Shown: positions 938-58,092 of the stretch, one piece after another
Layout of the letters: each line of letters opens with the position of its first letter
Numbering within the stretch: position 1 is the stretch's first letter
DNA from: Escherichia coli
GTDB taxonomy: Bacteria; Pseudomonadota; Gammaproteobacteria; Enterobacterales; Enterobacteriaceae
DNA length: 58,190 nucleotides
Assembly: GCF_003334255.1 (NCBI RefSeq)
Contig: NZ_QOWU01000031.1
Strand: one strand, 5' to 3'
Made by a program: the position numbers and the translations under genes
Notes under the pieces: generated by a model
What the model was told of the DNA's origin: nothing
The model's database searches: none
Seen by the model: only the letters and a program-made list of their open reading frames with translations

Positions 938-1306
938 ATGAAATATAGTTCAATATTTTCGATGCTTTCATTTTTTATACTATTTGCCTGTAATGAGACA
1001 GCTGTTTACGGTTCTGATGAAAACATTATTTTTATGAGGTATGTGGAAAAATTACATTTAGATAAATACTCTGTTAAAAATACGGTAAAAACTGAAACAA
1101 TGGCGATACAATTAGCTGAAATATATGTTAGGTATCGCTATGGCGAACGGATTGCAGAAGAAGAAAAACCATATTTAATTACGGAACTACCAGATAGTTG
1201 GGTTGTTGAGGGAGCAAAGTTACCTTATGAAGTTGCGGGTGGTGTATTTATTATAGAAATTAATAAGAAAAATGGATGTGTTTTGAATTTCCTACATAGT
1301 AAATAA
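938..1306 (+). CDS. ybbC: Putative Rhs-CT immunity protein, 122 aa, predicted lipoprotein (signal peptide with L-F-A-C lipobox)
   Basis: 122-aa ORF immediately downstream of the Rhs toxin domain, AT-rich. N-terminus [18 protein letters not shown] has a hydrophobic core and lipobox cysteine. Length and position match K-12 ybbC. Confidence 0.75.
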
Positions 1307-2016
1307 TGCTGGCGCTGATGGATGCGGATGGAAACATTGCGTGGAGCGGGGAGTATGATGAGTGGGGCAACCAGCTGAATGAAGAGAACCCGCATCACCT
1401 GCACCAGCCGTACCGGCTGCCGGGGCAGCAGTATGATAAGGAGTCGGGGCTGTACTACAACCGGAACCGGTACTACGATCCGTTGCAGGGGCGGTATATC
1501 ACTCAGGACCCGATAGGGCTGGAGGGGGGATGGAGTCTGTATGCGTATCCGCTGAATCCGGTGAATGGTATTGATCCATTAGGGTTAAGTCCCGCAGATG
1601 TAGCGCTAATAAGAAGAAAAGATCAACTAAACCATCAAAGAGCATGGGATATATTATCTGATACTTATGAAGATATGAAGAGATTAAATTTAGGTGGGAC
1701 TGATCAATTTTTCCATTGTATGGCATTTTGTCGAGTGTCTAAATTAAATGACGCTGGTGTTAGCCGATCGGCGAAAGGGCTGGGTTATGAAAAAGAGATT
1801 AGAGATTACGGGTTAAATCTGTTCGGTATGTACGGCAGAAAAGTAAAGCTATCCCATTCTGAAATGATTGAAGATAATAAAAAAGACTTGGCTGTAAATG
1901 ACCATGGGTTGACATGTCCATCAACAACAGATTGCTCAGATAGATGTAGTGATTATATTAATCCAGAGCATAAAAAAACGATAAAGGCTTTACAAGATGC
2001 TGGCTATCTCAAGTAA
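1306..2016 (+). CDS. ylbH: Orphan Rhs C-terminal module: about 80 aa of Rhs core-end homology followed by a distinct toxin-like domain; may be silent or pseudogenic
   Basis: Begins at a TAATG stop/start overlap with ybbC. The N-terminal 80 aa repeat the Rhs core end ([11 protein letters not shown]...DPIGL...DPLGL), then an unrelated AT-rich tail follows. This is the classic orphan rhs-CT arrangement. Confidence 0.7.
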
Positions 2017-2233
2017 TCTATCAAAGATGATAATATTTATTTTTGCTATTATAATCATTGTTGTTTTATGCGTAATTACTTATCTTTATTTATACAAAGA
2101 TGAATCTCTTGTAAGTAAACATTACATAAACTATATGGCAATACCAGAAAATGATGGAGTTTTTACATGGCTCCCAGATTTTTTTTCCGCACGTAGCGGT
2201 GGATATATCAATATACACAAATGTAGAAGATGA
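1997..2233 (+). CDS. ybbD: Small membrane protein, candidate immunity protein for the orphan Rhs-CT (more likely start at the internal Met near 2027)
   Basis: ORF directly after the orphan toxin module, with one strongly hydrophobic N-terminal helix ([23 protein letters not shown]). AT-rich. Gene name is by position only. Confidence 0.4.
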
Positions 2234-3002
2234 TTATTTTTTTCTTATTTTTCCCTAACAAATGATGATGGGGGTAGGTTTAAGAAAACATTGACAGTGA
2301 GGGCCAGGGAACAAGTGGCGAAAATCGTATCAAAGAATGATCCAGATACAAAAAAAGTGTGGTGTAAATATGGTAAGATACCAGGGCAAGGGGATGGTGT
2401 AAACCTTTTTTTTGTTGGTGAAATTAATGTTACGCATTATTTTATAACAAATATTGGAGCTGGATTGCCTGATGCTTGTGCAGAGTAATTGCTTGAATTA
2501 AGAGTCTATCCCATATCGAAGTCGTCAACTTCGTAGTGAGGAAAAGTAAAATTCCTGACTGAGAAAAGACATGTCGGCTATTGTGTAAAGCCATATAGCT
2601 CAGACGATGAATATCTACTCGTATTCAGTTGTTTATTGAGGGTGAGTTCCGACCCTGAAACAACAAATAAAATGAACAGTCAGAGAGTTTACATAGAATT
2701 GCACTGGTCTTTTACGATATCTGACATTGTGTAATACATATTCAGCCATGCATTAATTAAAATGTTACGTGTTTAATGTGAGTCCCTATCTGAAAATAAA
2801 TAATCCTTCCGGATTAAAATAAATTCTTGCCGGGAAAGAAAGAGGAAATAAACCATTAGCGGAAAACCAGCGGCACGCCAGGGTGACATGCCCCAGTACG
2901 GCGGCCCGATAGTCCAGGGTTCAGCGGGGGTACTGATAGTCGCGCCGACTGCATCGAGAACTCCATACAACTTTTTACGGAACGTCACCTGATAAAATTT
3001 GT

Positions 3003-3410
3003 TCAGTATCGTCTTTTGAGATTCTCAAGGTTATGGAGTAACCAGACAGAACGGACACCACTGTCGGAGATAAAAACCCCCTGTTTACGCAGCTCGTTGC
3101 TGGCCCGGTGCTGACCATGTGTCGGGAAAGCGACGGCGTAATCAACAACAGCCTGTTCAGTTGCCTCATCGGTACGGTTCTTAAGGTTAGGAGCGCGGCG
3201 ACTACGATTAATCTGCGCATCCACACCGCCTTCAGCGACCAGTTCGCGGTAACGATAAAACGTATCACGCGAAACGCCCATGATTTTACAGGCTTTTGAT
3301 ACGTTGCTGAGTTCTTCAGCCAGATTGAGCAAACCGGCTTTGTGTTTGATGACGGGATTGGCAGTATGAAGCATGAGAGTTACCTCTTGTTTTGGATAAG
3401 GATTCGACAC
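3003..3410 (-). pseudogene. ylbG: Transposase-like N-terminal (HTH) fragment, truncated; catalytic domain absent
   Basis: 135-aa ORF with an HTH-like segment (ACKIMGVSRDTFYRYRELVAEGG) typical of IS transposase N-termini. It ends without any DDE/integrase domain, and the downstream frames are broken. Position between the Rhs island and mnmH matches the K-12 ylbG pseudogene (from memory). Confidence 0.5.
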
Positions 3411-16391: not shown

Positions 16392-16550
16392 CCCTTACCT
16401 TTAAAGCGGATGCGATTTATATCGCATAAGAGTGCAGTACTCATGCCGGATGCGGCATGAGTACCATATCCTTCCTGAAAATCGCGCAAATTCTATATAT
16501 TGCAGAGATCATGTAGGCCTGATAAGCGAAGCGCATCAGGCAATGTTACA

Positions 16551-16576
16551 AAAAAAGCCACGGTATAAACCGTGGC
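16551..16576 (-). terminator. Rho-independent terminator of the allD-allC-allE operon
   Basis: On the minus strand: hairpin GCCACGGT-TTAT-ACCGTGGC followed by TTTTTT, about 45 nt downstream of the allE stop. Confidence 0.65.
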
Positions 16577-16618
16577 AAAATCCAACATAGCTAAAAATAA
16601 TCAGGCGAGTGGTATGAC

Positions 16619-57496: not shown

Positions 57497-57840
57497 TTAT
57501 GTTGGCGTTTTCTATTCAGTATAGAAGTCGGAGCGGCTGGGCGAGATGCGGAAGTTCTGGAATGTTTCTTTTTTTTGGTGATGGTGAACTGATGGTGCCT
57601 GAAGCAATTTGGCTACTTTTGCAATGTGACAAGTTATGGCAGTGCTGACTGGTGGCGAAGAATTTTGACGATTGAGTCATGCAGAAAAAAACGGGTTCAG
57701 CTTCAGTTGATTAAATGAGGAGTGAGAAGTCCGAAACAGGACTCACTGTATAAATAAACAGCTATTTTGTTGAGGAAGGGTAAGATAACGGCGGGTGCCT
57801 GAAGCTTTCCGGTTTCAGGTTTACTCTGAGGTCTGGAAAG

Positions 57841-58092
57841 ATGAAGCCCCAGGAGATATTTCTATCAACCCTGGGGCTGCCACTCCAAACCCGAACAATT
57901 TGGATGGTAGTCCCTTCTTCGCATGGAGGCAATATAAACATGCTGACGAAATATGCCCTTGCGGCAGTCATAGTGCTGTGTTTAACGGTGCTGGGATTTA
58001 CGCTTCTGGTCGGAGACTCGCTGTGTGAGTTTACGGTGAAGGAACGTAATATTGAGTTTAAGGCTGTTCTCGCTTACGAACCGAAGAAGTAG
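57841..58092 (+). CDS. mokE: mok-type overlapping leader frame of the hokE locus (modulator of killing)
   Basis: 83-aa frame that contains the whole hokE frame at its 3' end, which is the arrangement of hok/mok loci. Confidence 0.5.
57940..58092 (+). CDS. hokE: Hok-family type I toxin, 50-aa membrane peptide
   Basis: [50 protein letters not shown]: one TM helix plus the conserved Hok C-terminal region with Cys. Located next to ybdK as in K-12. Confidence 0.9.

Follow-up and report, generated by a model that had tools for sequence, protein, structure and literature searches.

Orphan rhs-CT/rhsI modules have been described by Poole et al. 2011 (PMC3150448), and the displacement of C-terminal tips by Jackson et al. 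2009 (PMC2935791). [quoted passage not shown] Both in Salmonella (PMC7043789) and in EHEC (PMC7618764), Rhs tails, whether orphan or main, have been found to be expressed internally. As to the toxins themselves, the prokaryotic serum amyloid A (prok-SAA) family of the Lipocone superfamily occurs as a polymorphic-toxin tip paired with immunity proteins of the membrane or periplasm, and the predicted activity of the superfamily is the cleavage or transfer of head groups linked by phosphate to membrane lipids or polyprenol carriers (bioRxiv 10.1101/2025.01.14.632903). A serum amyloid A (SAA) likeness of the EHEC RhsD protein z0651 has already been reported, by threading (PMC7216683). We describe here a locus of Escherichia coli in a stretch of 58,190 nucleotides (assembly GCF_003334255.1, contig NZ_QOWU01000031.1), termed the window, on the + strand of which all of the features discussed below are found. 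It carries an orphan Rhs tip, which is an element of an already known kind, partly decayed. Positions 1306–2488 very probably represent a displaced toxin/immunity tip (ylbH and ybbD) that is now a silent, partly decayed reserve tip.

[quoted passage not shown] Residues 2–122 of the frame at 26–898 match the NCBIfam RHS_core model (E = 2.2e-75), and it is the end of the model that is matched, the frame then running into an AT-rich tail. The protein at the main-gene position of related loci is an RhsD of 1426–1429 residues with PF14220 (DUF4329), and it has 1426 residues in the loci whose layout is identical to that of the window. The next gene (938–1306), which has a strong AAGGAG ribosome-binding site, is annotated as ybbC, of the YbbC-YhhH family, and carries PF15631 (Imm-NTF2-2) in related loci. 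The initial annotation was right to regard it as an immunity gene: it belongs to the Imm-NTF2-2 family, serves the main RhsD tail and ends in a TAA stop codon at 1304–1306. In a K-12 derivative the annotated order is ybbC, Rhs fragment, YbbD family, ylbG, mnmH and allS, the fragment being labelled ‘RHS repeat-associated core domain-containing protein, incomplete, missing N-terminus’; the K-12 gene names along the orphan stretch are ylbH, ybbD and ylbI (PMC3946193). The same layout of ybbC, fragment and ybbD was recovered by megablast from 1767 of 5426 complete E. coli genomes. Positions 1306–2488 of the window are the annotated ylbH-ybbD, the orphan tip of the E. coli rhsD locus. An earlier placement of the module's end at 2233 is wrong; ybbD resumes in frame and the module reaches 2488. 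A paper on EHEC RhsF/RhsFI (PMC7618764) was considered as a description of this locus and rejected, because the island described there is another one (S-loop 44).

Between ybbC and the orphan lies the sequence TAATG (1304–1308), the right-hand junction of the tip displacement. The ybbC stop codon at 1304–1306 shares its last A with an ATG at 1306–1308 that opens a frame of 236 codons ending at 2016; overlap and frame are both present as first reported. In a MAFFT alignment, homology between the orphan and the Rhs core begins at G1308, the main gene reading CCG CTG GCG CT at the junction and the orphan ATG CTG GCG CT. The ATG at 1306 is therefore a chimeric codon made by the junction, because its A and T come from the ybbC side and its G from the core side. 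TAATG was found in all 22 orphan loci scored, and a 75-nt stretch at the junction is identical in 21 of these, with a single substitution 5 nt downstream in the remaining one. Conservation of TAATG within DNA so nearly identical therefore points to one ancestral event and not to selection. Very many assemblies carry the 236-codon frame itself intact and with identical sequence (14000 index blocks).

The first part of this frame (1306–1587, residues 1–94) is a remnant of Rhs core that ends in the PxxxxDPxGL autoproteolysis/demarcation motif (nt 1558–1587). Residues 2–94 match positions 1169–1261 of the 1261 positions of RHS_core (NCBIfam, E = 2.2e-50), and the remnant also matches TIGR03696 (E = 3.3e-24) and the Pfam RHS model. 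The end of the Rhs core is re-created here as had been claimed, but over some 94 residues and not 80. Only RHS_core positions 1169–1261 are kept, and the orphan is not exportable because the N-terminal PAAR/YD-shell part, required for delivery, is absent. After PxxxxDPxGL the G+C content drops from approximately 57% to approximately 36%, as expected at an Rhs core-to-tip boundary.

The 142 residues that follow bear no relation to the tail, DUF4329, in which the upstream rhsD ends, in agreement with the description of a second, unrelated tail. They recur on full-length Rhs proteins: O157:H7 strain 7409 (1398 residues) and strain A19 (1400 residues) each carry an identical tail. In both strains a single Rhs gene lies between ybbP and ylbG-mnmH-allS, its last approximately 150 residues correspond to the orphan tail, and the locus has neither the DUF4329 tail nor ybbC. 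The expectation that some strains would have this tail fused to a full-length rhs was thereby borne out, and at the same chromosomal site, which fits the tip-displacement model (PMC2935791) and the concept of orphan rhs-CT/rhsI modules (PMC3150448). The 427 nt specific to the toxin (1590–2016) occur in 2852 of the 5426 complete genomes, in 2317 of them at 99% identity or more. Since the orphan layout accounts for 1767 genomes and toxin DNA is present in 2852, roughly 1000 genomes appear to have the tail in some other arrangement, fused in most cases.

The toxin domain (residues 95–236 plus the stop codon; 1588–2016) is helical and resembles prokaryotic serum amyloid A. A word-indexed protein search with the tail returned close relatives only, most of them short fragments, and did not reach the wider family, whereas an exhaustive search of representatives gave 96 cluster representatives at E ≤ 0.001. 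Without exception the homologues occupy the C-terminus of their proteins, the longest of which has 1935 residues, and DPxGL often precedes them. The residues that are invariant in the family (D133, H137, C138, C142, E164, D167, D194, N198, G201, C210 and C214, numbered in the 236-residue frame) are all present in the window. With the single 236-residue protein, Pfam gave a borderline SAA match (E = 0.0013) that was later confirmed by profile and structure model. Among 34 family members, 20 match Pfam SAA at E ≤ 0.001, the window's own sequence doing so at E = 0.0004, and the alignment profile finds the SAA chains 7zh7 (E = 1.6e-10) and 4ip8 (E = 3.8e-08) in the PDB. An AlphaFold2 model of the toxin has six helices and a pLDDT of 96.4; when it was compared with the PDB by Foldseek, the top seven matches were all SAA1 or SAA3, with target-normalized TM scores of 0.67–0.74 and a probability of 1.00. 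Within the sNxxGR motif of helix 4, N198 and G201 are invariant after a small or aliphatic residue, and the R is not conserved in the subfamily. As judged by homology and modelling, the tail is a prok-SAA (Lipocone) toxin domain, in line with the threading result for z0651 (PMC7216683) and with the published account of the prok-SAA family (bioRxiv 10.1101/2025.01.14.632903).

Because the four invariant cysteines sit at i, i+4 spacing on two helices, they may form disulfide staples, which would imply action outside the cytoplasm. Taken with a membrane-anchored immunity protein, they point more precisely to the periplasmic face of the inner membrane as the probable site of toxin action, a prediction made from sequence. 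The literature searched contains no toxicity, localization or immunity experiment on the ylbH-ybbD pair.

The partner gene ybbD (1997–2488) is the putative cognate immunity gene and is a pseudogene in the window, where it consists of a 78-codon stump (1997–2233) and an in-frame C-terminal remnant (2234–2488). Intact ybbD, as found in A19, has 163 codons, encoding an N-terminal membrane helix and a putative alpha/beta domain. Alignment with A19 resolves the 78-codon ORF, which has one hydrophobic segment and overlaps the toxin frame by 20 nt, into the first 62 codons of ybbD, 16 out-of-frame codons and a premature TGA. In a four-strain alignment two indels account for this arrangement: a T8 run at 2179–2186 that is a +1 frameshift relative to T7 in intact ybbD, and a T7 run at 2237–2243 that is a –1 frameshift relative to the intact T8, the same lesion as in K-12. 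The premature TGA (2231–2233) lies in the shifted frame between them, and past the second run the original frame returns and encodes the normal 83 C-terminal residues, to 2488. K-12 ybbD has the –1 lesion only and an 86-residue product, while that of O157:H7 combines the K-12-type lesion with a further –1 at a third run (2406–2413). The allele of the window is real and not a sequencing error, because the 78-residue product is found on 333 contigs and the exact T8 in 181 complete genomes. Intact YbbD of A19 scores 379.6 against NCBIfam NF011298 (cut-off 326), and the split copy in the window gives no full-length match to this 163-residue model; the family is also represented by Pfam PF26610 (YbbD_head).

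The initial annotation described this gene as a single-TM protein of 68–78 residues. Such an ORF with its hydrophobic segment does exist, but it is a fragment of the 163-codon ybbD and not a native small protein. The shorter alternative, with a start at 2027, finds no support, since the N-terminus beginning at 1997 is retained in homologues at 50–70% identity, which are conserved over their full length. Nor is a small membrane-protein partner of its own supported for the toxin: the partner is the 163-residue, membrane-anchored YbbD, which is doubly frameshifted here. Several divergent pairs link genes of this type to the toxin. A YbbD of 50% identity follows a toxin of 80% identity, with the same 20-nt overlap; a 173-residue YbbD_head protein, 34% identical over residues 42–163, lies after a toxin of 56% identity in another organism; and a toxin of 50% identity is followed by a ybbD-type gene only weakly similar to YbbD. 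Conservation among ybbD-type genes spans residues 42–163. Homologues that are conserved full length and linked to divergent toxins show the full 163 residues to be the selected form of YbbD, and this linkage across divergent pairs identifies YbbD as the putative cognate immunity protein. An AlphaFold2 model of YbbD from a six-sequence alignment was poor (pLDDT 62.7), and only its N-terminal helix was accepted.

These comparisons suggest the following history. The Rhs gene at this site would once have ended in the serum-amyloid-A-like toxin, followed by ybbD, a layout that strains like O157:H7 and A19 appear to have retained. In the lineage of the window, a cassette consisting of a core fragment, the DUF4329 tail and ybbC would have recombined into the core and shunted the old tip downstream. 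The junction would have fallen 1 nt past the ybbC stop codon and have created an in-frame ATG by chance. The orphan as it stands retains 94 core codons, including PxxxxDPxGL, and an intact 142-residue toxin; in the window, two homopolymer frameshifts have inactivated ybbD. Any protein made from 1306 by re-initiation after ybbC would be cytoplasmic, undelivered and of little consequence, and the orphan could presumably be re-armed only by recombination between the two core repeats. These repeats, in the main gene and the orphan, have approximately 230 bp in common at approximately 87% identity (about 85–90%), with no stretch of perfect identity exceeding 34 bp, and are a possible recombination substrate, as judged from their sequence, albeit a poor one. 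The proposal that the module is a displaced cassette which recombination could move onto the main gene is upheld in part: an orphan Rhs-CT does lie downstream of full-length rhsD and ybbC, but the shared core is only a possible substrate. Were fusion to the main core to occur, it would delete the DUF4329 tail and ybbC and, in the window strain, would arm the toxin without working immunity.

Not all of the evidence sits easily with a silent, decayed tip. The 236-codon frame is undamaged and the same in very many assemblies, and the A6 and A7 runs inside the toxin show no length variation in 34–35 loci; this constancy, when set against the varying runs of ybbD, means that the toxin part may still be under constraint. 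Against silence, there is the internal expression of Rhs tails in Salmonella (PMC7043789) and EHEC (PMC7618764), together with the in-vitro RNA polymerase binding sites that have been reported for ylbH>ybbD (PMC3946193).

The alternative that survives best holds that the tip is purely a relic, its core repeats being of insufficient length and similarity for recombination, and can never be re-attached. The brevity and divergence of the repeats, with no identical run longer than 34 bp, speak for it, as does an immunity gene that is already dead. However, a toxin frame that is intact and nearly invariant (at least 99% identical in 2317 of 2852 genomes) is at odds with a pure relic, and in Salmonella an orphan has been seen to be re-armed through recombination (PMC3967940). 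We regard a pure relic as rather unlikely, and return to a reserve tip, silent and partly decayed, as the preferred reading.

A different possibility is that the orphan is expressed in place by re-initiation at the overlapping ATG, yielding a low level of the 236-residue protein with a toxin–antitoxin-like or regulatory role. TAATG has the form of a stop/start overlap in one transcription unit, no terminator-like site is predicted between ybbC and the orphan, and the RNA at the start codon is not unusually structured (folding z = –0.21). The frame is intact with all invariant toxin residues in place, and there are precedents for expression of this kind in the Salmonella orphan Rhs-CT (PMC7043789) and in EHEC RhsFint (PMC7618764). 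Set against this, a ribosome-binding site is absent from the 3′ end of ybbC: there is no GGAG, GAGG or AGGA in the 25 nt upstream of the ATG at 1306 (ttttgaatttcctacatagtaaata), unlike ybbC, which has taaggag. Alignment with the published 108-bp P2 shows that the Salmonella promoter is degenerate here, its –35 element TTGACG being replaced by ATGATA and its –10 element TACAAT by TACAAC, and the + strand yielded no promoter-like site between 1300 and 1990. In some orphan loci that keep TAATG, a G7 run cuts the ATG off from the toxin. The cognate immunity gene is broken in the window and in most carriers, and a toxin–antitoxin pair active in the cytoplasm is disfavoured because such a pair could not tolerate broken immunity; the predicted site of action of the toxin is, moreover, periplasmic or membrane. 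We lean against translation in place, which nothing positively favours, although weak re-initiation may occur; a functional role for any product is unlikely, and expression in place with such a role is very improbable. Little credence can be given to the broader notion that the module is not inert, whether through re-initiation at TAATG that yields a low-level cytoplasmic SAA-like protein, toxin–antitoxin-like or regulatory, or through heritable switches at the G6/7 and T7/8 runs.

The homopolymer runs deserve separate consideration, since they determine which parts of the module can be read. The run at 1524–1529 is a G6, the in-frame allele, and with the G7 allele of other genomes the toxin no longer shares a frame with the core and the ATG. 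Exact matches with probes of approximately 91 nt in complete E. coli genomes gave G6 in 2124 and G7 in 411; at the second T run (2237–2243), exact T7 was found in 1413 and the intact T8 in 530 of the 2327 genomes with a match, and at the first (2179–2186) a T8 probe found the shifted allele in 181. Eleven run-length genotypes were distinguished among 36 sequences (35 fetched loci and the window), in orphan and fused layouts alike. All four ybbD runs of at least 6 nt vary, as does the G run, and those in ybbC, the toxin, mnmH and allS are constant, a contrast between ybbD and other genes that is inflated, as the loci were partly picked by allele. The link to the toxin is often lost and immunity kept in fused loci, whereas in orphan loci it is immunity that is lost. 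We read this pattern, from the sequences compared, as decay at mutational hot spots. That the runs (G6/7 in the core and T7/8 at three ybbD sites) are contingency switches, reversibly toggling toxin attachment and immunity, might be argued from the 11 genotypes, from the same change to T8 at the first T run in orphan and main layouts and from the constancy of runs of similar length in neighbouring genes, yet it is barely credible, given that runs of 6–8 bases are short for high-rate slippage in repair-proficient E. coli, that the alleles have gone to fixation within large clonal groups, that both O157:H7 and the window have accumulated second hits 3′ of the first, as expected for the decay of a dead gene, and that partial sampling by allele has inflated the spread.

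For annotation, the small membrane ORF after ylbH is a broken ybbD and not a new small protein. An Rhs toxin tip homologous to mammalian serum amyloid A is present in about half of the complete E. coli genomes, and the carrier genomes are a mosaic in which the toxin is in frame or cut off and immunity is intact or broken. This natural allele series, with the intact pair of the A19 type, is a handy resource for testing the predicted lipid-directed activity of the SAA-like toxin, and could show which part of YbbD confers immunity.

The locus can finally be set beside the systems outlined at the outset. Like other orphan rhs-CT/rhsI modules, ylbH-ybbD combines a DPxGL-bearing piece of core with a variable tail and, downstream, a putative immunity ORF, and its tail is fused to full-length Rhs in other strains. 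It departs from them in that ybbD is doubly frameshifted and ylbH starts with a junction-made ATG overlapping the ybbC stop codon; neither Jackson et al. 2009 (PMC2935791) nor Poole et al. 2011 (PMC3150448) mentions this orphan by name. It resembles the Salmonella Typhimurium orphan Rhs-CT, for which a possible route of internal expression is discussed, in the position of the tip downstream of the main rhs and in a common core sequence that permits recombination (PMC7043789 and PMC3967940). The E. coli module differs from the Salmonella orphan in its degenerate P2, its broken immunity gene and the type of its toxin.

The toxin is predicted to share the helical fold of prok-SAA and animal serum amyloid A (PDB 4ip8, 4q5g), and has in common with prok-SAA the motifs (Y/F)xxM(R/K)xxN, GxD(Q/K)(F/Y)FH and DxxAN..G. 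As described for that family, it is a C-terminal polymorphic-toxin tip with membrane-associated immunity (bioRxiv 10.1101/2025.01.14.632903), while its subfamily differs from prok-SAA in having four invariant cysteines and in lacking the arginine of sNxxGR; YbbD is outside the immunity types listed in the main text of the same preprint. A further point of comparison can be drawn at the level of the superfamily, where family and secretion route differ. TelC/TipC of Streptococcus intermedius, the toxin of which is a lipid II phosphatase of the Lipocone superfamily, represents a different family and is secreted by another route (T7SS); TelC and the ylbH toxin gave no direct match in sequence. By superfamily membership, the two systems would nevertheless be analogous in a predicted action on extracytoplasmic lipid-linked head groups and in an immunity protein of the membrane or periplasm.

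The toxin and its putative cognate immunity gene are found in opposite states in the O157:H7-type loci L002 and L020 of the comparison set. Over the region equivalent to 1524–2488 of the window, both carry the SAA-like toxin in frame (G6 in the G run) on a full-length Rhs protein, while ybbD contains two breaks, with T2 and T3 each having a length of 7. Judged from sequence, these loci would appear to encode an attacker without intact cognate immunity. Either the system goes unused in them, or a YbbD stump of 86 residues is enough.

Elsewhere it is the toxin that is out of frame. A G7 run in place of G6 at 1524–1529 shifts the frame just 5′ of the PxxxxDPxGL motif, and this allele is carried by comparison loci L004, L006, L010, L011, L013 and L030–L035, which include both orphan and fused layouts. 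Exact matches to G7 occur in 411 complete genomes, and the 151-residue gene call that is the product of this shift is found in 7923 index blocks.

The top promoter-like site predicted in the first 3 kb (ATGATA-17-TATAAT, 10/12; 2027–2055, plus strand) lies inside ybbD, 3′ of its start. RNA polymerase sites are reported from genomic SELEX for ylbH>ybbD and ybbD>ylbI (PMC3946193). The sequence at 2867–2940 (plus strand), which corresponds to ylbI, is left over from the 5′ end of an rhs gene: GKPAARQGDMPQYGGPIVQGSAGV matches the Rhs N-terminus MSGKPAARQGDMTQYGGPIVQGSAGV of L002. It adjoins ylbG, an IS-type HTH remnant (3003–3410, minus strand), and suggests that this site formerly had another rhs gene or underwent an IS-mediated rearrangement. 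The RNA features tRNA-Arg(TCT) at 36254–36330, sok antitoxin RNA at 57793–57948 and the sRNAs STnc480 and ES036 at 16478–16612, are ordinary for E. coli in the region 3′ of the all/gcl genes.

In the K-12 derivative Stbl4 (L001, 2032–2999), the DUF4329 tail lies immediately beside pptA-yddH-nhoA; here the core of rhsD is either gone or recombined with another rhs locus. A different genome (L037, CP029992.1; 1300–5700) holds orphan toxin/immunity modules in an array, in the order Ntox16 fragment, DUF6714 protein, 380-residue Rhs fragment, 173-residue YbbD_head protein, TseH and Imm58, and the tail of its Rhs fragment is SAA-like (56% identical).
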